64,000 nt of DNA, taken from Enterobacteria phage RB18. The notes beneath the pieces are model-generated. The model made no database searches and was not told where the DNA came from. It saw only the letters and a list, made by a program, of their open reading frames with translations. The position numbers and the translations under genes are program-made. The stretch lies in the sequence record NC_054906.1, one strand, 5' to 3'. Shown here piece by piece: positions 2,275 to 62,625 of the stretch. Position 1 is the stretch's first letter. The number at the start of each line of letters is the position of its first letter.

Positions 2275-3899
<1,625 letters not shown>

Positions 3900-7658: not shown

Positions 7659-7682
7659 GGGAACCTTCGGGTTCCCTTTTTC
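7659..7682. terminator. Bidirectional terminator GGGAACC-TTCG-GGTTCCC + T6 between convergent genes 23 and segD
   Basis: 7-bp GC stem, UUCG tetraloop, T-run. Confidence 0.85.
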
Positions 7683-8344
7683 TATTTTATACGATAGCAA
7701 TCAGGCATATCATCCGCATTTATCCAATTGCGAATAGTTTTAGGACTAACTTTAAAATGCTCCGCTGCGTAATCAGGATTATCAAATTTAACGCCCTTTA
7801 TACATATTGGAATAAATTTTTTAATACCACCAAGTTTTTCAGAAATAGCTTTACGATGTGAAATCGATATAGGTTTATTTTTTCGTGGATGAACATGTGT
7901 TTTATAATATTCATTGCGCCCTTTAACTCGCTTCGCAATAGTTTCATCAGATTGCTTAACGCCTGTTTTTGCCTTTGATATTTTTCGTTTAGCTTCCACA
8001 GTCATTCCTTCTTTTGTTCGTATTGATAACATATTACGATATGAAGGATCTTGCAAATGAACTATAACTGGATTTCCTCTGCCACCAATAGCAGCATTAT
8101 AGGTATCAGTTCTCATAACGAATTCCTCATTGACTAGTAAAGCTTCCATTTTATACATCTCCTCAGATGAGGAGAAAGAATAAAGAATTTCTTTTTTAAA
8201 GTTATGAATACCATATTTTTTGATGGATTTTTTGATGTTTACGCCAGAACCCATATAACCATCGTTTTCGTCAAGAGTAGCATGAGCTCCGATGTAAATT
8301 TTTCCATTGATGATATTAGTAATTTGATATATTAAATATTTCAT
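7682..8344 (-). CDS. segD: GIY-YIG homing-endonuclease-like protein (seg family), at the T4 segD position between genes 23 and 24
   Basis: MKYLIYQITNIINGKIYIGAH GIY-YIG motif near N-terminus; start taken at third ATG (8344), best spaced from GGAG; track ORF extends to 8383. Confidence 0.75.
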   Translation of the reverse strand: MKYLIYQITNIINGKIYIGAHATLDENDGYMGSGVNIKKSIKKYGIHNFKKEILYSFSSSEEMYKMEALLVNEEFVMRTDTYNAAIGGRGNPVIVHLQDPSYRNMLSIRTKEGMTVEAKRKISKAKTGVKQSDETIAKRVKGRNEYYKTHVHPRKNKPISISHRKAISEKLGGIKKFIPICIKGVKFDNPDYAAEHFKVSPKTIRNWINADDMPDCYRIK

Positions 8345-8408
8345 TTTAAACATCGCTCCGTTTGTATATGAATATAATATCATATTACTTTGGTCTTGTA
8401 AATAACTT

Positions 8409-23672: not shown

Positions 23673-23726
23673 TCCTCATGTTATGTCAGTAAGACTACTA
23701 TAACACAATATGAGGGACTTGTAAAC
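23673..23726 (-). repeat. 54-bp leader element, copy A (early-type promoter GTTTAC-N18-TATAGT plus leader stem-loop) upstream of alt.-3-like gene
   Basis: 51 of 54 identical to 38812-38865; -35 at 23721-23726 overlaps stop of Alt paralog. Confidence 0.7.
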
Positions 23727-25783
23727 TACATTTTGAACTTTTTAGACATTCCGTTGATGTTAACCAAAGAAGCTAAGATTTGAGAAACTTCGTTTTCCTC
23801 TTCTTTTGATTCTTCTACAAGGAATTGATTAAATCCAGCCATTGGACGAACTTCTCCGGTTTCCATTAGATAGTCACCATCATATACTGATTCTTCTAAT
23901 TGTTCAGAAGGAGGAACGATTGTACCTTCGATTAGATACTTGTTATAAGCAGTTTCTTTCATAAAGTAAGTACTTACTTTATTAATCTTCAGTAAAATTC
24001 CACGCGGTAGAATAACTTCAGCTTCTGATGGAAATCCTGTTAAATGACCTGGAACGATAACTTTGATTCGCTCAGCTCCTTTAATTACCATACCCACGCT
24101 AGTTTCAGCATCTTCATTAGCATATGTAGAATGACTACCCATATGCATCAAATCTTCTGCATCAACAGAACCTTCTCCTTCACCAGAAAATACTGCGCCG
24201 GAATCATCTAGAGCCATATAGTTTTTACCATGCTCACCGAAGATATTTGGTTTAAGTGATGTCGATACGAAGTTCTTGAAATAGAACATTTTGTTTTCAA
24301 TGTTATGACGCAAAGTTTTAAAGGTAACTTCTTGTCCACGATAAAGCGTAGTTCCTGGAGGAAGAACTGAACCTTTAGCGAATGCAGAATCCAACGTCTC
24401 GATGTGCTTAATAGCTCGTTCCATATATTCTTCACGGGTAGAATCTGGTTTACCCAAAAGGAACGAGTTCATTTCAACATATGAATCTGCACAATAATCT
24501 TCAATTACATCAGATTCAGCTTGAGTTAATCCTTTTGGAGTTACTTCGGTGCTTGCGTATTCATATGCCTGAGCAGCAGATTCATTAATCAATTTATAAA
24601 TGCCATTCATGACAAATTGAATAATAGCTGTCTTTTCATCTGGCGTAGCTTTAGAACCTTTAACCAAATCATTGATAATTTTCTTAATAACATCAAAGCT
24701 ATTAGAAATATTAATATCAGCAAGATCGCTTAAAATTTTATCAGTTTTATAATCAAAGAATTCTTTATTCTTTAAATATTCTTGAGAACCTTGATATGTT
24801 ATATCGCTCTGCAACTTGATGGATGGATCACGTAAACGTGCATGGGCTAATGCAATATGATTTCGGAAGTTTTCTAGTTCATAATCGCTAGATTTAAAAC
24901 GAGAAGCACTCCTCATACCACCGATAGCTCCTTTGTTGAAGTTTGAACCAATCTGAATAACGCCAGAGTTCATTGGTCCTTCTGCTTTATATACCGGAAC
25001 TTTGGATTCAAACTCTTGATATTTCTTAGCAGCGAAGCTATCACCCTGAAGTGAAGCATCAACAGTAGAATATTGAGCTTGTGCTGCTAATCGACGACTA
25101 ATTTTAGTTTTCTGAATAACAGCTTGGTCAGTGCGCTTATCATTTTCTAAAGCAATAGAAGCAGCAACTGCGACAGCTTTAGGAACAGCATTACCTGTTT
25201 TAACGTCTACATAAACATCACCAACCTTTGATTCAACTTTTGTGAATAACTCAGCTGAAATAGGAGGTACACCTGGAATGTCTTCTAAATTGGCATTTTT
25301 ACGGTAAACCATAATATATGCATATTTCTTATCATAGTCCCAGATTTCCTTTAAAAGAACATATCGGCCTGCTCCTTTAGTACGTACTAAACGGTCAGCA
25401 ATAACTTGCATTTGACGAGCAGCGCCATTTGTTTTACTCTTTAGTACGCGGAATAAGCATGCATCAATTTTATACTGTTTCATTGTTTGAAGAGCAGTAT
25501 CAAAAACAGCATTAATGACGCCAATTGGATTTCCACCCAAGTTTTTAAGCTTAACTAATGATAGTTTCTCATTAACACCTATCATTACGATATGCATCAT
25601 TTTGTCGCCTGGCTTAACGTTTTTATTCGTATCACCGCCAGAGGTGTATGTACAAAATCTAAATCCGGGGAGAACGCTTTCTTCACCGGCTTGAATAGCA
25701 AAAATTTGTGGTATTTTATGCTTAGGATTTAAGTTAACAACCGGCGCCGAAGCGCCGTCAAATAATTCTGTAATAAGTTCCAT
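23726..25783 (-). CDS. Alt-like mono-ADP-ribosyltransferase paralog (685 aa), intact
   Basis: N-terminus MELITELFDG identical in type to Alt; C-terminal R (LYRGQ), STS (FVSTSL) and EAEV motifs; diverged central region. Confidence 0.85.
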   Translation of the reverse strand: MELITELFDGASAPVVNLNPKHKIPQIFAIQAGEESVLPGFRFCTYTSGGDTNKNVKPGDKMMHIVMIGVNEKLSLVKLKNLGGNPIGVINAVFDTALQTMKQYKIDACLFRVLKSKTNGAARQMQVIADRLVRTKGAGRYVLLKEIWDYDKKYAYIMVYRKNANLEDIPGVPPISAELFTKVESKVGDVYVDVKTGNAVPKAVAVAASIALENDKRTDQAVIQKTKISRRLAAQAQYSTVDASLQGDSFAAKKYQEFESKVPVYKAEGPMNSGVIQIGSNFNKGAIGGMRSASRFKSSDYELENFRNHIALAHARLRDPSIKLQSDITYQGSQEYLKNKEFFDYKTDKILSDLADINISNSFDVIKKIINDLVKGSKATPDEKTAIIQFVMNGIYKLINESAAQAYEYASTEVTPKGLTQAESDVIEDYCADSYVEMNSFLLGKPDSTREEYMERAIKHIETLDSAFAKGSVLPPGTTLYRGQEVTFKTLRHNIENKMFYFKNFVSTSLKPNIFGEHGKNYMALDDSGAVFSGEGEGSVDAEDLMHMGSHSTYANEDAETSVGMVIKGAERIKVIVPGHLTGFPSEAEVILPRGILLKINKVSTYFMKETAYNKYLIEGTIVPPSEQLEESVYDGDYLMETGEVRPMAGFNQFLVEESKEEENEVSQILASLVNINGMSKKFKM

Positions 25784-25786
25784 GAT

Positions 25787-27883
25787 TTATCCTTGAACGA
25801 ACTTGTAAGGCATGTTTGTAATATCTATGCAAGACGCAATAATTCCAAGAGATGATTCTACTTTCTGTTTAACATTTGATGAAACAAATGATGCAAAGTC
25901 AACTCTGTCTTCTATTTCAATATCACCTGTCATTGCAACCAATTCACCAGTTTCCATTAAATGGTCTCCGTCATAGATTACCGATTCGGTGAGTTCTTCG
26001 GTGGTCATAACTTCAGCTTGAATGAGTTTTGTATTATTAGACGTGGTTCCGTCATTATTAGAAGCATCAGTTATTTTATTAACTTTGACCATCAATCCGC
26101 GCGGTAGAATAACTTCAGCTTCTGTTGCTATTCCGAGATTTCCTGGATATACAACATTAACTTTATGAGCTCCATCAATTGCCCATCCTATTTGAACTTT
26201 AACGTATTCAGGATTTTCTTTATACGCTCTTATTTCGCTTGGATTAATAGTTATTCCTTCTTCATTTTTATCAACTGTCAATTCATTACGAGCTTCTGGT
26301 TCTAAAAGACCAATACCAGCATGTGTAATTCCAAAACGTCCAAAAATGATAGGAGTTAAAGAAGTAGATACAAAATTTCTGAAATAGAACACTTTATTTT
26401 TAACTAGTGCTTCGTATATAGGAGCAGTCATACTTTGAGCACGATAAACTGTGATGCCTTCCGGTATGCGGTCACCATTTTCAAAAGCTGAATCTAAGTT
26501 ATTTATAGCAGATTCAATTTCTTTTTCACTCATTACATCATATCGTTCTGGATTGTAACGACCTAAAAGAAGATTATTGATGTCAGTATATCCTGAACCG
26601 CAATATTCTCTAATGCCACGCTTTTGTGATGGAGTATATTTAGAACCATCGCGGGCAATAGTAATATCAATCATTGGACCAGCACCAATTCCAGAAAAAC
26701 TGTAAATCATTCGTTTGAGGAATTTAGTTTTTGCTGCGTTCCAGGAATTTTTAGTTATTTCTTCCCAGACTTCATCTGGTTGTCCTTTACGATTTTTATT
26801 ATGATTAGCAAGCCATTTATCTTTATAATCTTCAAAGAATTGATTTACAGCTGCTGCGTATTTCTCTAAACATTTTATTGAAGTAGTTGGTTCATTTTTA
26901 ATTGCATTAAAAATTACTTCTTTAATTTTTTCTGAAACTTCACCGACTTGACTCATTGGAAAGAATTTATAATCATAGTGAAGTTCATCTGCCGTTCCTT
27001 CAGCAATAATTTTTGCTGCCTTTGTTTTAGAAGCTAATGAATTAATTCCAATTTTCATTTCTTCTGCTTCGGGAATTAAAGGTGCAGTAGCTGGTTTATT
27101 AAAATTAGCTGCTGTAGATTCATACTTCTGGAATAATTCACTTTCAAATCTAGAAGATTCCAATGACTGACTTTGTGCAATTGCTCTACGGGAAATTTTA
27201 ACTTTAACGATTACAGCTTGGTCAGAACGTTTATCATTTTCTTGCGCAATAGATGCTGCAATTGCCTCATTTTTAGTTACTTGGGCTCCAGTATCTTTAT
27301 TGATATAAACATCACCGACTTTCGATTCAACTTTAGTAAAGAGCTCGGTACTAATTTCCGGAACTCCTGGAATGTCTTCTAGTGATACATTTTTGCGATG
27401 TATAAGAATATATGCATACTTTTTATCGTAATCCCAGAGTTCCTTAAGAAGGACGTATCTACCACCTGAACGACTACGGATAAGTCTATCAGCAATAACT
27501 TGAATTTGTCGAGCTTGGCCAGCAGTTTTAGACTTAAGAATACGAAGCATACAAGCATCAATTTTATATTGACGCATTGTTTGCATTGCAACAGTAAAAA
27601 CTGAATTGATATAATTAATCGGGCTTGGACCAAGACCTTTTAATTTGGCAATTGAACCTTTAGCAGTTAATGTAAAAGGAACAATATGCATCATTTTATC
27701 GCCCATCTTTAAATCGCGATTAGTATCACCTCCAGATGTATAGGTACATAAACGAAAGCCTGGTTGTTCAATTGCATCATCAACATGAACTGAAAAAATT
27801 TGTGGTATTTTCTTCTTTGGATTTAAGTTTGTAATCGGAAGAGTAGTATCTTCGTCAAATAATTCTGTAATAAGTTCCATCAT
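25787..27883 (-). CDS. alt: Alt ADP-ribosyltransferase, packaged internal head protein (697-698 aa)
   Basis: MELITELFDEDTTLPITNLNPKK N-terminus; VYRAQ / FVSTSL / TEAEV ART motifs; TATAAATA upstream; adjacent to gene 30 as in T4. Confidence 0.92.
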   Translation of the reverse strand: MMELITELFDEDTTLPITNLNPKKKIPQIFSVHVDDAIEQPGFRLCTYTSGGDTNRDLKMGDKMMHIVPFTLTAKGSIAKLKGLGPSPINYINSVFTVAMQTMRQYKIDACMLRILKSKTAGQARQIQVIADRLIRSRSGGRYVLLKELWDYDKKYAYILIHRKNVSLEDIPGVPEISTELFTKVESKVGDVYINKDTGAQVTKNEAIAASIAQENDKRSDQAVIVKVKISRRAIAQSQSLESSRFESELFQKYESTAANFNKPATAPLIPEAEEMKIGINSLASKTKAAKIIAEGTADELHYDYKFFPMSQVGEVSEKIKEVIFNAIKNEPTTSIKCLEKYAAAVNQFFEDYKDKWLANHNKNRKGQPDEVWEEITKNSWNAAKTKFLKRMIYSFSGIGAGPMIDITIARDGSKYTPSQKRGIREYCGSGYTDINNLLLGRYNPERYDVMSEKEIESAINNLDSAFENGDRIPEGITVYRAQSMTAPIYEALVKNKVFYFRNFVSTSLTPIIFGRFGITHAGIGLLEPEARNELTVDKNEEGITINPSEIRAYKENPEYVKVQIGWAIDGAHKVNVVYPGNLGIATEAEVILPRGLMVKVNKITDASNNDGTTSNNTKLIQAEVMTTEELTESVIYDGDHLMETGELVAMTGDIEIEDRVDFASFVSSNVKQKVESSLGIIASCIDITNMPYKFVQG

Positions 27884-44295: not shown

Positions 44296-44512
44296 ATTGT
44301 TTTTCCGTTAATACAGTAATATCATAGTAACAATCGGAAGAAGTTTTAACTGTGGAAATTTTATTGTCAAAATACTCACGAGTCATTTTATGAGTATAGT
44401 ATTTTTTACCATAAATGGTAATAGGCTGTTCTGGTCCTGGAACTTCTAACTCGCTTGGGTTAGGAAGTGTAAAAAGAACAACGCCAGAAGTATCTTTAAA
44501 TCGTAAAATCAT
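44249..44512 (-). CDS. Hypothetical protein (87 aa, T4 nrdA.2 position)
   Basis: ATGA coupling to td. Confidence 0.6.
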
Positions 44513-45369
44513 ATTGCCATTTTCCCTTTAATTGCTGGATGCGATTCATAATTTTCAAGGATAAAATCTTTCGGTTTCATGTATTCAGTTAACCAGTAAA
44601 GCTGTGTTTCGGTGTCACAATTTCCAAACTCTATAGGCCAATCAATTTTAAGTTCACACAGTTCTTTAGGCTCACGACGTAAAATTTCTTTACATTGCGC
44701 AGTATGATTCATATAGATGTGAGTATTACCACCAGAAAATATCAAATCTCCTGGGATAAGATTACACATCTTAGCCACAATATGCGTCAAGGCAGCGTAC
44801 GAGGCAATGTTGAATGGCAATCCCAAGAAAACATCTACACTTCTTTGGTACCATTGTAAATCAAGATAACCATTACGCACATTAAACTGATAGAACATAT
44901 GACAGGGCGGTAATGCCATTTGATTGATTTCAGCTGGATTCCATGCTGAAACGATTTGACGTCGATCAGTTGGTAATTTTTTAATACGATCAATAGTTTC
45001 AACTAATTGATCCACACCGCCGAAATCACGCCATTGTTTACCGTATATAGGACCAAGTTCACCACTATGATATCCTAGGTCTTTAGCCTGGTTTTCATAG
45101 TTATCGTCCCAAATAGTTTTACCTTGAATAAGACTGCCATGAGTGCGAAGACGTAAATCATTAACATTGGTAGAACCGGAAATAAACCATAGAAGCTCAG
45201 CAATGCATGCATTCCAGGCGAGCTTTTTAGTTGTTACCGCAGGAAAACCTTTAGTTAAATCCCAGCGTAATTTAGTACCGAACAAAGCAATTGTTCCTGT
45301 GCCTGTTCGGTCATCGGTTTCATAGCCATTTTCAAAAATGTCTTTAATTAAATCTTGGTATTGTTTCAT
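44509..45369 (-). CDS. td: Thymidylate synthase, uninterrupted (286 aa)
   Basis: Active-site PPCH motif ([11 protein letters not shown]) in one continuous 286-codon frame; no intron. Confidence 0.93.
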
Positions 45370-51556: not shown

Positions 51557-51564
51557 TATAAATA
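51557..51564 (+). promoter_or_regulatory. Late promoter TATAAATA (gene 34)
   Basis: Exact consensus 35 nt upstream of ATG. Confidence 0.7.
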
Positions 51565-51598: not shown

Positions 51599-54500
51599 AT
51601 GGCCGAGATTAAAAGAAAGTTCAGAGCAGAAGATGGTCTGGACGCAGGTGGTGATAAAATAATCAACGTAGCTTTAGCTGATCGTGCCGTAGGAACTGAC
51701 GGTGTTAACGTTGATTACTTAATTCAAGAAAACACAGTTCAACAATATGATCCAACTCGTGGATATTTAAAAGATTTTGTAATCATTTATGATAACCGCT
51801 TTTGGGCTGCTATAAATGATATTCCAAAACCAGCAGGAGCTTTTAATAGCGGACGCTGGAGAGCATTACGTACTGATGCTAACTGGATTACGGTTTCATC
51901 TGGTTCATATCAATTAAAATCTGGTGAAGCAATTTCGGTTAACACCGCAGCTGGAAATGACATCACGTTTACTTTACCATCTTCTCCAATTGATGGTGAT
52001 ACTATCGTTCTCCAAGATATTGGAGGAAAACCTGGAGTTAACCAAGTTTTAATTGTAGCTCCAGTACAAAGTATTGTAAACTTTAGAGGTGAACAGGTAC
52101 GTTCAGTACTAATGACTCATCCAAAGTCACAGCTAGTTTTAATTTTTAGTAATCGTCTGTGGCAAATGTATGTTGCTGATTATAGTAGAGAAGCTATAGT
52201 TGTAACACCAGCGAATACTTATCAAGCGCAATCCAACGATTTTATCGTGCGTAGATTTACTTCTGCCGCACCGATAAATATTAAACTTCCAAGATTTGCT
52301 AATCATGGAGATATTATTAATTTCGTCGATTTAGATAAACTAAATCCACTTTATCATACAATTGTTACTACATACGATGAAACGACTTCAGTACAAGAAG
52401 TTGGAACTCATTCCATTGAAGGCCGTACAACAATTGACGGTTTCTTGATGTTTGATGATAATGAGAAATTGTGGAGATTGTTTGACGGGGATAGTAAAGC
52501 ACGTTTACGCGTTATAACAACTAATTCTAATATTCGTCCAAATGAAGAAGTTATGGTATTTGGTGCGAATAACGGAACAGCTCAGACAATTGAACTTCAG
52601 CTTCCAACTAATATTTCTGTTGGTGATACTGTTAAAATTTCCATGAATTACATGAGAAAAGGACAAACAGTTAAAATCAAAGCTGCCGGTGAAGATAAAA
52701 TTGCTTCTTCGGTTCAATTGTTGCAATTCCCAAAACGCTCAGAATATCCGCCTGAAGCTGAGTGGGTTACAGTTCAAGAATTAGTTTTTAACGGTGAAAC
52801 TAATTATGTTCCAGTTTTACAACTTGCTTATATAGAAGATTCTGATGGAAAATACTGGGTTGTGCAACAAAATGTTCCAACCGTAGAAAGAGTAGACTCT
52901 TTAAATGATTCTACTAGAGCAAGATTAGGCGTAATAGCTTTAGCTACACAAGCTCAAGCTAATGTCGATTTAGAAAATTCTCCACAAAAAGAATTAGCAA
53001 TTACTCCAGAAACATTAGCTAACCGTACTGCTACTGAAACTCGTAGAGGTATTGCAAGAATAGCAACTACTGCTCAAGTGAATCAGAACACCACATTCTC
53101 TTTTGCTGATGACCTTATCATCACTCCTAAAAAGCTGAATGAAAGAACTGCTACAGAAACTCGCAGAGGTGTCGCAGAAATTGCTACACAACAGGAAACT
53201 AATACAGGTACTGATGATACTACAATCATCACTCCTAAAAAGCTTCAAGCTCGTCAAGGTTCTGAATCATTATCTGGTATTGTAACTTTTGTATCTACTG
53301 CAGGTGCTACTCCGGCTTCTAGCCGCGAATTAAATGGTACCAACGTTTATAATAAAAACACTAATAATTTAGTTGTTTCACCTAAAGCTTTGAATCAGTA
53401 TAAAGCTACTCCAACGCAACAAGGTGCAGTAATTTTAGCAGTTGAAAGTGAAGTAATTGCTGGACAAAGTCAGCAAGGATGGGCAAATGCTGTTGTAACG
53501 CCAGAAACGTTACATAAAAAGACATCAACTGATGGAAGAATTGGTTTAATTGAAATTGCTACGCAAAGTGAAGTTAATACAGGAACTGATTATACTCGTG
53601 CAGTCACTCCTAAAACTTTAAATGACCGCAGAGCAACTGAAAGTTTAAGTGGTATAGCTGAAATTGCTACACAAGTTGAATTCGACGCAGGCGTCGACGA
53701 TACTCGTATCTCTACACCATTAAAAATTAAAACCAGATTTAATAGTACTGATCGTACTTCTGTTGTTGCTCTATCTGGATTAGTTGAATCAGGAACTCTC
53801 TGGGACCATTATACCCTTAATATTCTTGAAGCAAATGAGACACAACGTGGTACACTTCGTGTAGCTACACAAGTTGAAGCTGCTGCAGGAACACTAGATA
53901 ATGTTTTAATAACTCCTAAAAAGCTTTTAGGTACTAAATCTACTGAAGCACAGGAAGGTGTTATTAAAGTTGCAACTCAGTCTGAAACTGTGACTGGAAC
54001 GTCGGCAAATACTGCTGTATCTCCAAAAAATTTAAAATGGATTGTGCAGAGTGAACCTACTTGGGCAGCTACTACTGCAATAAGAGGTTTTGTTAAAACT
54101 TCATCTGGTTCAATTACATTCGTTGGTAATGATACAGTCGGTTCTACACAAGATTTAGAACTGTATGAGAAAAATAGCTATGCGGTATCACCATATGAAT
54201 TAAACCGTGTATTAGCAAATTATCTGCCGTTAAAAGCAAAAGCTGCAGATAGTAATTTATTGGATGGTCTAGATTCATCTCAGTTCATTCGTAGGGATAT
54301 TGCACAGACGGTTAATGGTTCACTAACCTTAACCCAGCAAACGAATCTGAGTGCCCCTCTTGTATCATCTAGTACTGCTACGTTTGGTGGATCAGTTTCG
54401 GCAAATAGTACATTAACTATTTCTAACACTGGAACGGCAACTCGTCTGATTTTTGAGAAAGGACCTCAAACTGGAACTAACCCAGCACAGACGATGACTA

Positions 54501-55468
54501 TCAGAGTTTGGGGAAATCAGTTTGGCGGCGGTTCAGATACAACACGTTCTACTGTATTTGAAGTTGGTGATGAAACATCTAATCACTTTTATTCTCAACG
54601 TAATAAAGCTGGGAATATAACGTTTAGTATCAATGGTACTGTGATGCCAATAAATGTTAACGCTTCAGGCACGTTGAATGCGAATGGCGTTGCAACATTC
54701 GGTCGTTCAGTTACAGCCAATGGTGAATTCATTAGCAAGTCTGCAAATGCTTTCAGAGCAATAAACGGTGATTATGGATTCTTTATCAGGAATGATGGTG
54801 GCAGCACATATTTTATGCTTACTGCATCTGGTGATCAGACTGGCGGATTTAATGGATTACGTCCTTTAGCTATTAATAATGTATCTGGTCAAGTAACAAT
54901 TGGTGAAAGCTTAATCATTGCCAAAGGTGCTACTATAAATTCAGGTGGTTTAACTGTTAACTCGAGAATTCGTTCTCAGGGCACTAAAACATCTGATTTA
55001 TATACCCGCGCGCCAACATCTGATACTGTAGGATTCTGGTCAATCGATATTAACGATTCAGCCACTTATAACCAATTCCCGGGTTATTTTAAAATGGTTG
55101 AAAAAACTAATGAAGTGACTGGGCTTCCATACTTAGAACGTGGCGAAGAAGTTAAATCTCCTGGTACATTGACTCAGTTTGGTAACACACTTGATTCGCT
55201 TTACCAAGATTGGATTACTTATCCAACGACGCCAGAAGCGCGTACCACTCGCTGGACACGTACATGGCAGAAAACCAAAAATTCTTGGTCAAGTTTTGTT
55301 CAGGTATTTGACGGAGGTAACCCTCCTCAACCATCTGATATCGGTGCTTTACCATCTGATAATGCCACAATGGGTAATCTTACTATTCGTGATTTCTTGC
55401 GAATTGGTAATGTTCGCATTATTCCTGACCCAGTGAATAAAACTGTTAAATTTGAATGGGTTGAATAA
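51599..55468 (+). CDS. 34: Long tail fiber proximal subunit gp34 (1289 aa)
   Basis: 1289 aa; late promoter 51557-51564; repeat-rich fibre sequence. Confidence 0.95.
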   Translation: MAEIKRKFRAEDGLDAGGDKIINVALADRAVGTDGVNVDYLIQENTVQQYDPTRGYLKDFVIIYDNRFWAAINDIPKPAGAFNSGRWRALRTDANWITVSSGSYQLKSGEAISVNTAAGNDITFTLPSSPIDGDTIVLQDIGGKPGVNQVLIVAPVQSIVNFRGEQVRSVLMTHPKSQLVLIFSNRLWQMYVADYSREAIVVTPANTYQAQSNDFIVRRFTSAAPINIKLPRFANHGDIINFVDLDKLNPLYHTIVTTYDETTSVQEVGTHSIEGRTTIDGFLMFDDNEKLWRLFDGDSKARLRVITTNSNIRPNEEVMVFGANNGTAQTIELQLPTNISVGDTVKISMNYMRKGQTVKIKAAGEDKIASSVQLLQFPKRSEYPPEAEWVTVQELVFNGETNYVPVLQLAYIEDSDGKYWVVQQNVPTVERVDSLNDSTRARLGVIALATQAQANVDLENSPQKELAITPETLANRTATETRRGIARIATTAQVNQNTTFSFADDLIITPKKLNERTATETRRGVAEIATQQETNTGTDDTTIITPKKLQARQGSESLSGIVTFVSTAGATPASSRELNGTNVYNKNTNNLVVSPKALNQYKATPTQQGAVILAVESEVIAGQSQQGWANAVVTPETLHKKTSTDGRIGLIEIATQSEVNTGTDYTRAVTPKTLNDRRATESLSGIAEIATQVEFDAGVDDTRISTPLKIKTRFNSTDRTSVVALSGLVESGTLWDHYTLNILEANETQRGTLRVATQVEAAAGTLDNVLITPKKLLGTKSTEAQEGVIKVATQSETVTGTSANTAVSPKNLKWIVQSEPTWAATTAIRGFVKTSSGSITFVGNDTVGSTQDLELYEKNSYAVSPYELNRVLANYLPLKAKAADSNLLDGLDSSQFIRRDIAQTVNGSLTLTQQTNLSAPLVSSSTATFGGSVSANSTLTISNTGTATRLIFEKGPQTGTNPAQTMTIRVWGNQFGGGSDTTRSTVFEVGDETSNHFYSQRNKAGNITFSINGTVMPINVNASGTLNANGVATFGRSVTANGEFISKSANAFRAINGDYGFFIRNDGGSTYFMLTASGDQTGGFNGLRPLAINNVSGQVTIGESLIIAKGATINSGGLTVNSRIRSQGTKTSDLYTRAPTSDTVGFWSIDINDSATYNQFPGYFKMVEKTNEVTGLPYLERGEEVKSPGTLTQFGNTLDSLYQDWITYPTTPEARTTRWTRTWQKTKNSWSSFVQVFDGGNPPQPSDIGALPSDNATMGNLTIRDFLRIGNVRIIPDPVNKTVKFEWVE

Positions 55469-55476
55469 GAGGTATT

Positions 55477-56592
55477 ATGGAAAAATTTATGGCAGAGTTT
55501 GGACAAGGATATGTCCAAACACCATTTTTATCGGAAAGTAATTCAGTAAGATATAAAATAAGTATAGCGGGTTCTTGTCCGCTTTCTACCGCAGGACCGT
55601 ATGTTAAATTTCAGGATAATCCTGTAGGAAGTCAAACATTTAGCGCAGGTCTTCATTTAAGAGTTTTTGACCCTTCCACCGGAGCATTAGTTGATAGTAA
55701 GTCATATGCTTTTTCGACTTCAAATGATACTACATCAGCTGCTTTTGTTAGTTTCATGAATTCTTTGACGAATAATCGAATTGTTGCTATATTAACTAGT
55801 GGAAAGGTTAATTTTCCTCCTGAAGTAGTATCTTGGTTAAGAACCGCAGGAACGTCTGCCTTTCCATCTGACTCTATATTGTCAAGATTTGACGTATCAT
55901 ATGCTGCTTTTTATACTTCTTCTAAAAGAGCTATTGCATTAGAGCATGTTAAACTGAGTAACAGAAAAAGCACAGATGACTATCAAACTATTTTAGATGT
56001 TGTATTTGACAGTTTAGAAGACGTCGGAGCTACCGGGTTTCCAAGAAGAACGTATGAAAGCGTTGAGCAATTTATGTCAGCGGTTGGTGGAACTAATAAC
56101 GAAATTGCGCGTCTACCAACTTCAGCTGCTATAAGTAAACTCTCTGATTATAATTTAATTCCTGGTGATGTTCTTTATCTTAAAGCACAGTTATATGCTG
56201 ATGCTGATTTACTTGCTCTTGGAACTACAAATATATCTATCCGTTTTTATAATGCATCTAATGGATATATTTCCTCGACACAAGCTGAGTTTACTGGACA
56301 AGCTGGGTCATGGGAATTAAAGGAAGATTATGTAGTTGTTCCAGAAAACGCAGTAGGATTTACGATATATGCACAAAGAACTGCACAAGCTGGTCAAGGC
56401 GGCATGAGAAATTTAAGTTTTTCTGAAGTATCAAGAAACGGCGGCATTTCAAAACCTGCTGAATTTGGCGTCAATGGTATTCGTGTTAATTATATCTGTG
56501 AATCTGCTTCACCTCCGGATATAATGGTACTTCCTACACAAGCATCGTCTAAAACTGGTAAAGTGTTTGGGCAAGAATTTAGAGAAGTATAA
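55477..56592 (+). CDS. 35: Long tail fiber hinge connector gp35
   Basis: 371 aa; synteny 34-35-36-37. Confidence 0.9.
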   Translation: MEKFMAEFGQGYVQTPFLSESNSVRYKISIAGSCPLSTAGPYVKFQDNPVGSQTFSAGLHLRVFDPSTGALVDSKSYAFSTSNDTTSAAFVSFMNSLTNNRIVAILTSGKVNFPPEVVSWLRTAGTSAFPSDSILSRFDVSYAAFYTSSKRAIALEHVKLSNRKSTDDYQTILDVVFDSLEDVGATGFPRRTYESVEQFMSAVGGTNNEIARLPTSAAISKLSDYNLIPGDVLYLKAQLYADADLLALGTTNISIRFYNASNGYISSTQAEFTGQAGSWELKEDYVVVPENAVGFTIYAQRTAQAGQGGMRNLSFSEVSRNGGISKPAEFGVNGIRVNYICESASPPDIMVLPTQASSKTGKVFGQEFREV

Positions 56593-56597
56593 ATTGA

Positions 56598-56620
56598 GGG
56601 AGCCTTCGGGTTCCCTTTTT
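56598..56620 (+). terminator. Terminator GGGAGCC-TTCG-GGTTCCC + T5 after gene 35
   Basis: 7-bp stem (one G-U), UUCG loop, T-run. Confidence 0.8.
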
Positions 56621-56623
56621 CTT

Positions 56624-56631
56624 TATAAATA
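56624..56631 (+). promoter_or_regulatory. Late promoter TATAAATA (gene 36)
   Basis: Exact consensus 24 nt upstream of ATG. Confidence 0.7.
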
Positions 56632-56654: not shown

Positions 56655-57320
56655 ATGGCTGATTTAAAAGTAGGTTCAACAACCGGAGGCTCTGTCATTT
56701 GGCATCAAGGAAATTTTCCATTGAATCCAGCCGGTGACGATGTACTCTATAAATCATTTAAAATATATTCAGAATATAATAAACCACAAGCTGCTGATAA
56801 CGATTTCGTTTCTAAAGCTAATGGTGGTACTTATGCATCAAAGGTAACATTTAATGCTGGTGTTCAAGTACCATATGCTATAAACAACACAAACCAATGT
56901 GGTATTTATCCAGGTAACGGTGATAATGCTACTTTTGCTGTAGCAAATATTGATATTGTTTCGTGGAATGGTATTGGTTTTAAATCATCACAGGGTTCAG
57001 CAGAACGAACTGTTGTAATTAATGCACGTAATGGTGATATTAGTACAAAAGGCGTTGTGACAGCAGTAGGTCAAATAAGAAGTAATGCAGTTGCTCCTAT
57101 AGCAGCGAATGACCTTACTAGAAAGGACTATGTTGATGGAGCAATAAATACTGTTACGGCAAATGCAAACTCTAGGGTGCTACGGTCTGGTGACATCATG
57201 ACAGGTAATTTAACAGCGCCAAACTTTTTCTCACAGAATCCTGCATCTCAACCTTCACATGTTCCACGATTTGACCAAATCGTAATTAAGGATTCTGTTC
57301 AAGATTTCGGCTATTATTAA
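56655..57320 (+). CDS. 36: Long tail fiber proximal connector gp36 (221 aa)
   Basis: 221 aa; late promoter 56624-56631. Confidence 0.9.
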   Translation: MADLKVGSTTGGSVIWHQGNFPLNPAGDDVLYKSFKIYSEYNKPQAADNDFVSKANGGTYASKVTFNAGVQVPYAINNTNQCGIYPGNGDNATFAVANIDIVSWNGIGFKSSQGSAERTVVINARNGDISTKGVVTAVGQIRSNAVAPIAANDLTRKDYVDGAINTVTANANSRVLRSGDIMTGNLTAPNFFSQNPASQPSHVPRFDQIVIKDSVQDFGYY

Positions 57321-57328
57321 GAGGACTT

Positions 57329-60300
57329 ATGGCTACTTTAAAACAAATACAATTTAAAAGAAGCAAAATCGCAGGTGCACGTCCTGCTGCTTCAGTATTA
57401 GCCGAAGGTGAATTGGCTATAAACTTAAAAGATAGAACAATTTTTACTAAAGATGATTCAGGAAATATCATTGACTTAAGCATTTCTGCTGGTGGTAATA
57501 TCAGTGGAAATATCACTCAAACTGGTGATTATACACAGACTGGAAAATTTAATTTAATTGGTCCGCAAATTGTAGCAAGCGGTGGATATATTGAGTTTAA
57601 TTATCGTACTACTGGAAGTGGGGCTTGGTCCGGTCAACATACTGCGAAAGCTCCAATTTTTGTAGATTTAAGCTCAGCTACTTCCACATCTGAATATAAT
57701 CCTATAATTAAACAGCGCTTTAAAGATGGAACTTTTTCATTAGGTACTTTAGTTTCTGAAGGTTCGTTGAAGATTCATTATATCAATGAATCTGGCGATT
57801 CGAAATATTGGACGTTTCGACGTGACGGCGGATTTACTGTTGACGGTGGAGGTTTAGGAGTATCAGGAGGTAGTATAACTACATCTGGAAATATTGCAGC
57901 TCTCGGAAATATTACTTCGCCTCAGATTAATACTAAAAATATTATTTTAGATACAAAAGCATTTGGACAATACGATTCGCAATCATTAGTTCAATATGTT
58001 TATCCTGGAACAGGTGAAGAAAATGGTATAAACTATCTTCGTAAAGTTCGAGCTAAATCAGGCGGAACCATTTACCATGAAATCGCTTCAGCTCAAACCG
58101 GTAAAAATGATGAAATTTCTTGGTGGACCGGAAATACACTTACTACTAAATTAATGGGTCTTCGTAATGATGGCGCAATGGTATTACGTCGTTCACTTGC
58201 TATTGGCACAATTACCACTGACGAAAATACTAACAACTATGGTTCTCCTACTCCAATGGGAGAAAGATATATTGCTTTGGGCGATGCTGCCACTGGTTTA
58301 AAATACATTAAGCAGGGTGTTTATGATTTAGTAGGTAATTGGAATTCTGTTGCTTCTATTACTCCTGATAGTTTCCGTAGTACTCGTAAAGCGTTATTTG
58401 GACGTTCAGAAGACCAAGGCGGAACCTGGACAATGCCTGGAACGAACGCTGCCTTTTTATCAGTTCAAACACAGGCTGATGAAAACACTGCTGGAGACGG
58501 CCAGACGCATATTGGCTATAACTCAGGCGGAAAAATGAACCACTATTTCCGTGGTAAAGGCAAAACTAATATTAATACTCAGGAAGGTATGGAAGTTAAT
58601 CCGGGTATTTTGAAATTGGTAACTGGCTCTAATAATGTAATGTTTTATGCTGATGGCGGTATTACATCTGTTAAGCAGCTTTCAATATATAATGGCATAT
58701 ATTTAGCAGCTAATAATTCTACTGCTGGGCTAACATTCGCTCCAACTACTACAATTGATGGTACTAAGCAAATTTTGTGGGAAGGCGGTACTCGCGCTGG
58801 GCAGAATAAAAGCTATGTAACTGTTAAAGCATGGGGTAATTCATTTAACGCATCTGGCGATCGTAATCGTGAAACGGTTTTTGAAGTAGCTGATGGACAA
58901 GGATATTATTTTTATTCACAGCGTGTGGCTCCAAGTGGCTCTGAAACTACTGGGCCTGTTGTAACCCAGTTCAATGGACAAGTTAATGCTAGAGGAAGTA
59001 TTATTACTGACGGAAGTTTTAAAGTTAATGGATTAAGCACTTTAGTCGGTAATGTTACTATGTCTAATGGTTTGTTTGTCCAAGGTGGTTCTTCTATTAC
59101 TGGACAGGTAAAAATTGGTGGAACGGCTGATGCATTAAGAATTTGGAATGCTGAATACGGTGCTATTTTCCGTCGCTCAGAAAGTAATCTTTATATTATC
59201 CCGACTCCTAAAGATGCTGGAGAATCGGGCGGTATAAGTAATCTTAGACCATTGATAATAGAACTGAACACTGGCACAGTTAAAATGTCGCATGATGTTC
59301 ATTTAGGAGATTCTGGATCTGGTACAGGACTTTTACAAGTAAGTAATAGTCTTAAAACTATTAAAATGATATGTCCAGTAACTATTAATTCACCTAATGC
59401 AGTGCTTACTCTAGATTCTCCTTCATCTTCTGCTAATTATTTACTGGGTTCTAGAGATGGAACTAGATCGTGGTATGTTGGTCTTGGTGGCGCTGGAAAT
59501 GATTTATCGCTTTATAGTCAATATAATGGACACGGTCTTGTTATAAGCAATAATTTAGTATCAATCACTAAACCTCTTAAAGTCGGAAATGCACAATTAG
59601 GAACTGACGGTAATATTACCAATGGTTCAGGAAACTTTGCCAACTTAAATACCACGTTAAATCGTAAAGTTAATTCTGGATTTATTACTTATGGAGCAAC
59701 CTCTGGATGGTATAAGTTTGCAACAGTAACAATGCCACAATCCACTTCAACAGTCTTCTTTAAAATAGTTGGAGGTTCTGGATTTAATAGCGGATTATTC
59801 ACCCAATGTAATATTGCTGAAATTGTTTTACGTACTGGTAATGAAAGACCTTCTGACTTAAATGCTGTATTATACACAAGAACAACTGGAATGTATAGCG
59901 CAGCATTTAGAAATATTGCAGTTAACAATGTCTCTGGAAATACATATGACATTTATGTTTATGCTGGAACATATTGTAATCAACTAGTTTGTGAATGGTC
60001 ATGTACCGAAAATGCTACTGTTAGCGTTATTGGTATTAACTCATCTACCCAATCACCTGTGGATGCTCTTCCAGATACAGCAGTTGATGGGCAAGTTGCT
60101 AATGTTCTTAATAACTTGGTTGATCGCGGTAAAGTTAAGCGTTATGAAGCCGATTCTGAAATAGCTATTAATAGCCCAACCGGTATTCGTATCAGAAGCA
60201 ATGGCGATAAAACTGGTTCTGTTGCTACAATGCTACGAAATGATGGCGGCAGTTTTTATATTCTGTTTACAGATAAAAATGCCACCGATGGCGCAGCAAC

Positions 60301-61114
60301 TGTTAATGGTGATTGGAATAGTAAACGTCCTTTCGCAATTAACTTAACAACCGGCGAAGTGATGATGAATAATGGCATAGCTGTTCGCAGCGCTGCTTTA
60401 TTCTATAATAGCATAAACGTCAAAGATAATGGTTCTATTAACTTTGATAAATCAGGTGCTAACCCGAGAAATATGAGAATATTTCATGCTGGCGATGCTT
60501 CTCGCGGTAACCGCATTGAAATTGCAGATGAAACTAACTATATTGCTTACTTTGAAAAGGCTCCAGGTGGAGCTAACCGCTTTGTAGTAAATAATGCTAC
60601 TGTAGCTGGTGTTAACCAAATGAATTCATTTGGTATTAATATCAATAACGCACTTGGTGGAAATAGTATAGCATTTGGTGATAGCGATACTGGTATTAAG
60701 CAAAATGGCGATGGATTATTAGACATATATGCGAACAGCGTACAAGTGTTCCGTTTCCAAAACGGTGATTTGTACTCATACAAAAATATAAATGCTCCAA
60801 ACGTTTATATTCGTTCTGATATTCGTTTAAAATCCAACTTTAAGCCTATCGAAAATGCACTTGATAAAGTTGAAAAACTTAACGGTGTCATTTACGATAA
60901 AGCTGAATACATCGGTGGAGAGGCAATTGAAACTGAAGCGGGTATTGTGGCTCAAACGTTACAAGACGTTTTACCAGAAGCTGTCCGCGAAACAGAAGAT
61001 AGCAAGGGTAATAAAATACTCACTGTTTCTTCTCAAGCCCAGATTGCTCTTCTGGTTGAAGCTGTGAAAACACTTTCTTCTCGTGTAAAAGAACTTGAAT
61101 CTAAACTTATGTAA
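57329..61114 (+). CDS. 37: Long tail fiber distal subunit gp37, T2-type (1261 aa) with C-terminal intramolecular-chaperone-like domain
   Basis: Conserved N-terminal region; length differs from T4 (1026 aa from memory); C-terminal coiled segment ending ...KELESKLM. Confidence 0.9.
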   Translation: MATLKQIQFKRSKIAGARPAASVLAEGELAINLKDRTIFTKDDSGNIIDLSISAGGNISGNITQTGDYTQTGKFNLIGPQIVASGGYIEFNYRTTGSGAWSGQHTAKAPIFVDLSSATSTSEYNPIIKQRFKDGTFSLGTLVSEGSLKIHYINESGDSKYWTFRRDGGFTVDGGGLGVSGGSITTSGNIAALGNITSPQINTKNIILDTKAFGQYDSQSLVQYVYPGTGEENGINYLRKVRAKSGGTIYHEIASAQTGKNDEISWWTGNTLTTKLMGLRNDGAMVLRRSLAIGTITTDENTNNYGSPTPMGERYIALGDAATGLKYIKQGVYDLVGNWNSVASITPDSFRSTRKALFGRSEDQGGTWTMPGTNAAFLSVQTQADENTAGDGQTHIGYNSGGKMNHYFRGKGKTNINTQEGMEVNPGILKLVTGSNNVMFYADGGITSVKQLSIYNGIYLAANNSTAGLTFAPTTTIDGTKQILWEGGTRAGQNKSYVTVKAWGNSFNASGDRNRETVFEVADGQGYYFYSQRVAPSGSETTGPVVTQFNGQVNARGSIITDGSFKVNGLSTLVGNVTMSNGLFVQGGSSITGQVKIGGTADALRIWNAEYGAIFRRSESNLYIIPTPKDAGESGGISNLRPLIIELNTGTVKMSHDVHLGDSGSGTGLLQVSNSLKTIKMICPVTINSPNAVLTLDSPSSSANYLLGSRDGTRSWYVGLGGAGNDLSLYSQYNGHGLVISNNLVSITKPLKVGNAQLGTDGNITNGSGNFANLNTTLNRKVNSGFITYGATSGWYKFATVTMPQSTSTVFFKIVGGSGFNSGLFTQCNIAEIVLRTGNERPSDLNAVLYTRTTGMYSAAFRNIAVNNVSGNTYDIYVYAGTYCNQLVCEWSCTENATVSVIGINSSTQSPVDALPDTAVDGQVANVLNNLVDRGKVKRYEADSEIAINSPTGIRIRSNGDKTGSVATMLRNDGGSFYILFTDKNATDGAATVNGDWNSKRPFAINLTTGEVMMNNGIAVRSAALFYNSINVKDNGSINFDKSGANPRNMRIFHAGDASRGNRIEIADETNYIAYFEKAPGGANRFVVNNATVAGVNQMNSFGININNALGGNSIAFGDSDTGIKQNGDGLLDIYANSVQVFRFQNGDLYSYKNINAPNVYIRSDIRLKSNFKPIENALDKVEKLNGVIYDKAEYIGGEAIETEAGIVAQTLQDVLPEAVRETEDSKGNKILTVSSQAQIALLVEAVKTLSSRVKELESKLM

Positions 61115-61116
61115 AA

Positions 61117-61132
61117 GAGGGCTTCGGCCCTC
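61117..61132 (+). other. Hairpin GAGGGC-TTCG-GCCCTC between genes 37 and 38
   Basis: 6-bp stem, UUCG loop; no immediate U-tract. Confidence 0.5.
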
Positions 61133-61144
61133 TAAGGATTTTTA

Positions 61145-61936
61145 ATGGCAATTGTAGGTGTTCCTGGCTGGATTGGCGAATCTGCCGTGAATGAAACTGG
61201 ACAACGTTGGATGGATGCTGCAATGAAAGCAGTTCGTGTTTCAGTTCCTGGTTGGATGAGCTCAATGGCTGGACAATCTAAAGAAGTATATTACAGCATT
61301 GGTGCTAGCAATTCTTATAATAAAGATACACTAATAAATTGGATAAAAGCCCAAGGAAGTACTCCTGTTGTTATTACTATTACAGGAAATATTGTTTCTC
61401 AATCTACTGGTGTTCCATGCTTAGATTTTCCTAGCTCATTAACTAATGCATATGTTACCTTAAATATTAATAGTGGGGTTCATGTATTAGGTCGGGGAGG
61501 AAATGGCGGAAGTAACTCTGCTGGTGGAGCAGGAGGAACTGCAATAAATAACGGAATTGGAACTCGTTTAAGAATAAACAATAATGGTATTATTGGTGGC
61601 GGTGGCGGTGGCGGCGCAGGTGCTAGATACAATCCTTTCCCTCAAATGGATATGAAATTTGGTGGCGGCGGAGGTCGTCCATTTGGCGCAGCTGGCGCAG
61701 CAGGAGGTGGCGCAGCTGCAGCATCTGCTGGTACAATTTCTGCTCCCGGTAAAGGCACTGTTTCTGGGGTTCACCATGGAGGAGATGGTGGAGATTTAGG
61801 AGCTGCTGGCAAATCTTCATATATTCAAGGTGGTACTGGAGGAACTGTTCACTCGGGTGGTGCTGCGGGTAAAGCTGTTACTGGTAATGCTCCAACTTGG
61901 ACTAAAGTTGGCACAATATATGGTTCAAGAGTATAA
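61145..61936 (+). CDS. 38: Tail fiber adhesin gp38, T2-type with glycine-rich motifs (263 aa)
   Basis: Poly-Gly segments (GGGGGGGAGA, FGGGGGRPFG) separating variable segments; conserved N-terminus MAIVGVPGWIGES. Confidence 0.88.
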   Translation: MAIVGVPGWIGESAVNETGQRWMDAAMKAVRVSVPGWMSSMAGQSKEVYYSIGASNSYNKDTLINWIKAQGSTPVVITITGNIVSQSTGVPCLDFPSSLTNAYVTLNINSGVHVLGRGGNGGSNSAGGAGGTAINNGIGTRLRINNNGIIGGGGGGGAGARYNPFPQMDMKFGGGGGRPFGAAGAAGGGAAAASAGTISAPGKGTVSGVHHGGDGGDLGAAGKSSYIQGGTGGTVHSGGAAGKAVTGNAPTWTKVGTIYGSRV

Positions 61937-61968
61937 TTTTTGAATAAATATCCTTAAAAGGAGGGTCT

Positions 61969-62625
61969 ATGGCAGCACCTAGAATATCATTTTCGCCCTC
62001 TGATATTCTATTTGGTGTTCTAGATCGCTTGTTCAAAGATAACGCTACCGGGAAAGTTCTTGCTTCCCGGGTAGCTGTCGTAATTCTTTTATTTATGATG
62101 GCGATTGTTTGGTATAGGGGAGATAGTTTCTTTGAGTACTATAAGCAATCAAAGTATGAAACATACAGTGAAATTATTGAAAAGGAAAGAAATGCACGCT
62201 TTGAATCTGTCGCCCTGGAACAACTCCAGATAGTTCATATATCATCTGAGGCAGACTTTAGTGCGGTGTATTCTTTCCGCCCTAAAAACTTAAACTATTT
62301 TGTTGATATTATAGCATACGAAGGAAAATTACCTTCAACAATAAGTGAAAAATCACTTGGAGGATATCCTGTTGATAAAACTATGGATGAATATACAGTT
62401 CATTTAAATGGACGTCATTATTATTCCAACTCAAAATTTGCTTTTTTACCAACTAAAAAGCCTACTCCCGAAATAAACTACATGTACAGTTGTCCATATT
62501 TTAATTTGGATAATATCTATGCTGGAACGATAACCATGTACTGGTATAGAAATGATCATATAAGTAATGACCGCCTTGAATCAATATGTGCTCAGGCGGC
62601 CAGAATATTAGGAAGGGCTAAATAA
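61969..62625 (+). CDS. t: Holin T (218 aa)
   Basis: 218 aa; single N-terminal TMD and large periplasmic domain; sequence recognised. Confidence 0.93.
   Translation: MAAPRISFSPSDILFGVLDRLFKDNATGKVLASRVAVVILLFMMAIVWYRGDSFFEYYKQSKYETYSEIIEKERNARFESVALEQLQIVHISSEADFSAVYSFRPKNLNYFVDIIAYEGKLPSTISEKSLGGYPVDKTMDEYTVHLNGRHYYSNSKFAFLPTKKPTPEINYMYSCPYFNLDNIYAGTITMYWYRNDHISNDRLESICAQAARILGRAK

Follow-up and report, generated by a model that had tools for sequence, protein, structure and literature searches.

Salmonella phage S16, whose receptor is Salmonella OmpC, is among the closest described counterparts of the tail-fibre tip considered here. Its gp37(3)–gp38 complex (PDB code 6F45; Dunne et al., 2018) comprises an attachment domain, a β-helix and a polyglycine sandwich, and three tryptophans of S16 gp38 dock a single copy of this protein onto the gp37 trimer (PMC6851490). 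Among T4-type phages, the form of adhesin that predominates is the gp38 of T2 and T6 and not that of T4 (Trojet et al., 2011; PMC3157838), a view shared by Dunne and Leiman (PMC6851490). Here, we analyse the corresponding genes 37 and 38 of Enterobacteria phage RB18 in a window of 64,000 nucleotides from sequence record NC_054906.1, to which all positions refer. RB18 (species Tequatrovirus RB18) comes from the RB collection, was isolated on E. coli B/5 and has a genome of 166,677 bp (PMC2993671). The two genes very probably constitute a standard T2-type distal long-tail-fibre module of Tequatrovirus, with a mosaic make-up and the mode of action outlined below.

The open reading frames (ORFs) given for the two genes in a first-pass annotation, made from the letters of the DNA, are exact at both ends. 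Their products are identical from end to end to the deposited RB18 proteins gp37 (AXF42557.1/YP_010067130.1) and gp38 (AXF42558.1/YP_010067131.1). The module is already known and correctly annotated, and its arrangement is ordinary in this phage group.

Architecture of gp38 and gp37

RB18 gp38 is covered over its full length by two adhesin-family profiles of Pfam, both of which exceed the curated cutoff of 25: Gp38_N (PF21721; residues 1–42, E = 7e-18, 64.7 bits) and GP38 (PF05268; residues 47–263, E = 1.8e-69, 234 bits). Residues 8–261 align with gp38 of S16 (6F45_D, E = 1e-47), with W9, W22 and W37 matching the three tryptophans of that protein. RB18 thus shares the attachment domain, β-helix and polyglycine sandwich of the S16 complex, but its gp38 is 14 residues longer and the hypervariable loops are different. 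The N-terminal half of gp38 is conserved, and in an alignment with T2, T6, FriedrichMiescher, Shfl2, AV114, TadeuszReichstein/Bas43 and kaaroe the C-terminal half displays invariant glycine motifs between hypervariable segments (HVSs). Glycine makes up 23% of the protein and 35% of residues 117–250, and the conserved runs include GRGGNGG, GGGGGGG (residues 151–157) and GGGGG (residues 173–177). The T2/K3-type architecture of poly-glycine motifs and variable segments that had been proposed for gp38 is therefore supported by Pfam, by 6F45_D and by the alignment. T2 has the same architecture as RB18, but its gp37 has 1341 residues and a largely different shaft.

The gp37 protein is matched in Pfam by Gp34_trimer-like, gp37_trimer and, at its extreme C-terminus, Peptidase_S74 (PF13884, 'chaperone of endosialidase'; residues 1163–1220, E = 3.5e-15, 56.5 bits, cutoff 22). 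Profile positions 1–58 of the last are aligned, with position 1 falling on S1163, the conserved cleavage-site serine. This match bears out the suggestion that gp37 ends in an intramolecular-chaperone segment. The E values of the gp37 and gp38 matches lie well outside what chance would give. The C-terminus also aligns with the tip and chaperone domain of S16 gp37 (6F45_A) and with the auto-processing domain of MYRF (7DC3), and the junction NVYIR/SDIRLK together with the 99-residue C-terminal fragment is identical in RB18, T2, FriedrichMiescher, Shfl2 and AV114. Processing of T2 gp37 was reportedly demonstrated by Drexler, Riede and Henning in 1986.

Homology and architecture are established by the matches above; a course of assembly can be proposed in which cleavage, stoichiometry and receptor are carried over from close, experimentally studied relatives. 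The distal half-fibre would form from three gp37 chains, folded with the aid of their own C-terminal chaperone (residues 1163–1261), which would then cut itself off before Ser1163. One gp38 monomer would dock on the exposed tip of the gp37 trimer through its N-terminal domain and the three conserved tryptophans, leaving the hypervariable loops of the polyglycine-sandwich domain to bind a host outer-membrane protein, most probably the nucleoside channel Tsx.

Mosaic structure of the gene 36–38 block

Gene 38 of RB18 lies directly 3' of gene 37 and 5' of the holin gene t, which is the arrangement of Tequatrovirus and Mosigvirus, and its order 36-37-38-t, given by ORFs and Pfam matches, is also that of T2, T6, FriedrichMiescher, Shfl2 and AV114. 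For the gene 37–38 block as a whole no full-length match above 89.9% was found in the phage collection. A map of mismatches in 50-bp bins, also made in a 200-bp version, divides the block into segments with different relatives (Table 1). The block opens on a conserved stretch, formed by the end of gene 36 and the start of gene 37, that is common to T4, T2, T6 and others. The first 972 nucleotides of gene 37 (57329–58300) are 99.2% identical to all T2 records; the T2-like part is limited to the first ∼1.1 kb (57329 to ∼58440), of which ∼57480–58440 is specifically T2-like, and beyond ∼58440 the identity to T2 is 65–86% or absent. The shaft that follows is of the FriedrichMiescher/teqhal/K3 type, with sub-patches in which Shfl2 (59850–60100) or AV114 (60150–60450) matches better. 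Next comes a block conserved in T2, FriedrichMiescher, Shfl2 and the Mosigvirus AV114; it runs from the gp38-binding tip of gp37 through the chaperone domain and the hairpin between the genes into the first ∼19 codons of gene 38, with which the gp38 attachment domain begins, and is probably used as a linker in recombination. At ∼61450 the DNA switches to the Shfl2/AV114 type, and from there to 61936 T2, T6 and FriedrichMiescher diverge. The gp37 of T6 is short (994 residues), its DNA being unrelated to that of RB18 over most of its length. T4 DNA homology stops at ∼57474 and resumes at 61944, with no T4 DNA match at all over 59224–61944; from this point identity to all T-even phages is back at 98–100%.

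Since different segments have different best matches, the module draws on at least three sources and is not one import from the T2 lineage. As judged by these comparisons, the locus is a recombination patchwork of a T2-like 5' part of gene 37, a FriedrichMiescher/K3-like shaft and a Shfl2/AV114-like specificity region of gp38. On the same map the joints lie at conserved stretches, namely the junction of genes 36 and 37, the region from the gp37 tip through the chaperone to the N-terminus of gp38, and the junction of gene 38 with t. Such mosaicism is typical of T-even phages. The loss of T4 homology between ∼57474 and 61944 bears out the modular exchange at the tail-fibre locus that the first-pass annotation had proposed.

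It is hardly conceivable that the system is instead of the T4 type, with the gp37 tip acting as adhesin and gp38 as an assembly chaperone only, absent from the virion. Close homologues are labelled 'tail assembly protein' or 'distal long tail fiber assembly catalyst' in some records, but such labels have been carried over from T4 nomenclature, and the strong matches of RB18 are to the adhesin families and the S16 gp37(3)–gp38 complex. A BLASTP comparison of RB18 gp38 with T4 gp38 (183 residues in NC_000866, the length given for it in the first-pass annotation) detected no similarity, the best E value being 13, and Pfam returned adhesin families only for RB18 gp38 and none of the T4 gp38/Tfa-type chaperone. 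T4 gp37 (1026 residues; NC_000866) occupies the same genomic place, from gene 36 to t, and its N-terminal two thirds are homologous to RB18 gp37, with which it aligns only over RB18 residues 1 to ∼830 (50% identity). It carries seven HxH motifs within residues 883–998 (at 883, 915, 929, 966, 980, 989 and 998) and 14 histidines, whereas RB18 gp37 has no HxH motif and a single histidine in its last 250 residues. A PDB search with RB18 gp37 did not return the tip of T4 gp37, the His-box needle of PDB entry 2XGF. Neither of the two features that the first-pass annotation had named as contrary to its reading, a gp38 of the T4 chaperone type or T4-like His boxes at the gp37 C-terminus, is present. 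The earlier framing, a single block from the T2 lineage imported into a T4-lineage genome, is also highly improbable. It would account for the T2-like first ∼1.1 kb of gene 37 and for the lack of T4 DNA homology over 59224–61944, but not for the drop in T2 identity past ∼58440, for a gp38 whose identity to that of T2 is 63% over the whole protein and 52% within the specificity domain, or for best relatives that differ by segment. Moreover, positions 1–57328 of the window are as near to T2 (95.4% identity) as to T4 (95.2%). The closest records outside the module are at ∼97% (teqsoen, ESh33, Sf22 and FriedrichMiescher), and gp34–36 are ∼96.5% identical to many phages; by these identities the backbone is generic Tequatrovirus and not specifically T4. 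Nor is the adhesin type exceptional (PMC3157838; PMC6851490): a tblastn search with RB18 gp38 found it in 760 records of the phage collection, while T4 gp38 gave 297 records, of which only 91 were at ≥80% identity and ∼90 were weak lambda-Tfa-like matches. Most of these phages carry the adhesin type, and T4 is the outlier. Of the description 'T2-type module in a T4-like backbone', the type (T2/K3) therefore stands and the backbone does not, and with at least three sources and the commonest type of adhesin the claim that the module came from a different lineage than most of the window is not supported either.

Prediction of the receptor

Over its whole length RB18 gp38 is 99.2% identical to those of Shfl2, REP4 and UFV13 and 97.7% identical to those of AV114, AV115 and Bas43, phages whose gp37 shafts differ from that of RB18. 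Identity to T2 gp38 rises to 76% in the N-terminal half, and identity to T6 gp38 is 55% overall. In the specificity domain (residues 117–263) the identity is 100% to Shfl2, 97.3% to AV114, 96.6% to TadeuszReichstein/Bas43, 74.5% to FriedrichMiescher, 61% to T6 and 52% to T2. Knockouts have shown that AV114 and AV115, both of Mosigvirus, depend on Tsx (PMC10844046). The same holds for TadeuszReichstein/Bas43 of Tequatrovirus, by knockout in the BASEL work (PMC8594841 supplement) and also by randomly barcoded transposon sequencing (RB-TnSeq; bioRxiv 10.64898/2026.04.02.716166 supplement). The RB18 domain is near-identical to these alleles of phages with experimental Tsx dependence. With 96.6–97.3% identity to the Tsx-dependent AV114 and Bas43 and 52% to T2, Tsx is therefore the likely receptor of RB18, by extension from studied relatives. 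A PFPQM core in HVS2 is common to RB18 and to the Tsx binders T6 and FriedrichMiescher; T6 gp38 represents a second, distinct group of Tsx-binding alleles. The receptor of T2 is FadL (FadL/OmpF), and its hypervariable segments are clearly unlike those of RB18.

OmpA was considered by way of kaaroe, a Krischvirus whose gp38 is 95.9% identical to that of RB18 in the specificity domain, and its species-mate RB49, which uses OmpA. This candidate was rejected: RB49 gp38 is only 70% identical to RB18 overall and has different hypervariable segments, so the likeness of kaaroe does not imply OmpA. The kaaroe gene itself (2986–3771 in kaaroe, L010) lies ∼55 kb from gene 37, adjoining tk and rI, and over the N-terminal attachment half its product reaches only 82.5% identity to that of RB18. 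The likeness of kaaroe, AV114 and RB18 indicates that the same specificity cassette circulates in Tequatrovirus, Mosigvirus and Krischvirus.

Several points weigh against the reading of the module as a self-processed, Tsx-binding fibre tip. The autoproteolysis predicted at Ser1163 of SDIRLK is deduced from domain homology only. Receptor data or experiments for RB18 were found neither in Trojet 2011 (PMC3157838), nor in the supplements of the 2026 receptor-screen preprint, nor by full-text search, and no receptor data were found for Shfl2, REP4 or UFV13. Compared with the alleles of proven Tsx dependence, those of RB18 and Shfl2 carry four to five substitutions in or next to HVS2–HVS4 (N163 for H, K171 for I, H211 for Y, D214 for N and Q228 for K). 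One substitution in HVS3 can be enough to change the receptor, as Q206L does from OmpF to OmpW in RB51/RB68, and a few changes gave PST the added use of OmpA (PMC3157838). Furthermore, Shigella flexneri was the isolation host of Shfl2, whose specificity domain is the same as that of RB18, and the Krischvirus AV108, which has a related gp38, uses OmpA. These observations would fit an adhesin that has kept its architecture and binds something other than Tsx, whether OmpA, OmpF/FadL or, with dual or extended specificity, more than one receptor. We nevertheless regard this as fairly unlikely: two independent phages of different genera with more than 96% identity in the specificity domain both need Tsx, the hypervariable segments of the OmpA-type RB49 and the FadL-type T2 are clearly distinct, and gp38 similarity predicts the receptor (PMC12032242). 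The last study makes no mention of AV109, AV114 or AV115, and for FL37 and FL38 it names no receptor. That the RB18/Shfl2 variant has a shifted or broadened specificity, for example for a Shigella Tsx loop variant or a second porin, seems quite improbable; if true, it would illustrate how a handful of substitutions in hypervariable loops can fine-tune specificity in nature.

Neighbouring genes, signals and the backbone

The genes and signals around the module are listed with its segments and domains in Table 1. The holin gene t on the right flank is 98–100% identical to those of T4, T2, T6, FriedrichMiescher and Shfl2. On the left, the position of the motif TATAAATA agrees with the upstream region of T4 gene 36, and it probably drives a late 36-37-38 transcript; a second such motif of the T4 late-promoter type precedes gene 34, at 51557. 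The hairpin between genes 37 and 38 is followed on its 3' side by an AAGGA ribosome-binding site and the ATG of gene 38, and the K3 record has an annotated stem-loop at the equivalent place.

Table 1. Features of the RB18 tail-fibre locus (window positions)
Feature	Position	Strand	Basis
gp34	51599–55468		Pfam
gp35	55477–56592		Pfam
Late-promoter motif of the T4 type, TATAAATA, 5' of gene 36	56624..56631	+	Exact motif match
gp36, distal hinge connector	56655..57320	+	Pfam Phage_T4_gp36, E = 1e-40
Gene 37, long tail fibre distal subunit, T2/K3-type, 1261 residues	57329..61114	+	ORF
Conserved gene 37 5' end, left recombination joint	57329..57480	+	0–4 mismatches per 50 nucleotides to T4, T2 and FriedrichMiescher
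Gene 37 segment almost identical to T2	57481..58440	+	0–1 mismatches per 50 nucleotides, 6 in one bin
FriedrichMiescher/teqhal/K3-type gene 37 shaft	58450..60650	+	93.5% identity to FriedrichMiescher and teqhal, 85.9% to K3
Block conserved across every adhesin-type phage in the comparison	60650..61200	+	0–6 mismatches per 50 nucleotides, 0–2 from 60700
Intramolecular chaperone domain of gp37, residues 1163–1261	60815..61111	+	PF13884, PDB matches
G+C-rich hairpin with TTCG loop (AGAGGGC-TTCG-GCCCTCT), gene 37/38 gap	61116..61133	+	Terminator-like scan
Gene 38, tail-fibre tip adhesin, 263 residues	61145..61936	+	ORF, Pfam
gp38 N-terminal attachment domain, residues 1–42, W9/W22/W37	61145..61270	+	PF21721
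gp38 specificity domain, residues 117–263, predicted Tsx-binding surface	61493..61933	+	Alignment
Holin t, conserved right flank	61969..62625	+	Pfam Phage_holin_T, E = 2e-117

A second G+C-rich hairpin with a TTCG loop stands after gene 35 (56596–56617, + strand), followed by a T-run and the late-promoter motif of gene 36. The spacer between gene 38 and t (61937–61968) contains AATAAATA, a late-promoter motif with one mismatch, just 5' of the holin ribosome-binding site. The middle of gene 36 (∼56850–57100) is an allelic patch to which FriedrichMiescher is close and AV114 partly close; T2 and Shfl2 show 11–27 mismatches per 50 nucleotides there, with T4 intermediate. In the 3' part of gene 34 (54000–55400) the identity to AV114 is 85–98%, compared with ∼70–80% over the backbone, and identity to T4 and T2 drops to 68–88% at 54400–54800, a pattern that suggests cross-genus exchange in this proximal fibre gene as well.

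Elsewhere in the window, two large tandem ORFs of 685 and 698 residues lie on the minus strand at 23726–27883, where T4 has one alt gene and the remnants alt.-1, alt.-2 and alt.-3; T4 has no match at 24001–25000, and T2 is 96–98% identical there and also has two large ORFs. A 233-residue ORF between genes 23 and 24 (7682–8383, minus strand) is covered by T4, which carries the homing endonuclease segD at this place, and T2 covers just 56–64% of the surrounding 2 kb, a case of presence/absence variation of a homing endonuclease. The thymidylate synthase ORF (44509–45369, minus strand; 286 residues) is uninterrupted, having neither a T4-like td intron nor I-TevI. Over 45–48 kb T4 coverage is only 44–68%, and some small ORFs differ from those of T4.

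Beyond confirming a correct annotation, the locus is of little wider significance. It illustrates that T4 as an archetype can mislead, in that a common state is taken for an exception. The segment map supplies concrete recombination joints for RB18, and the comparison of gp38 alleles yields a testable prediction of Tsx as the receptor, which may be of use for RB18/Shfl2-like phages in host-range work or in phage cocktails.

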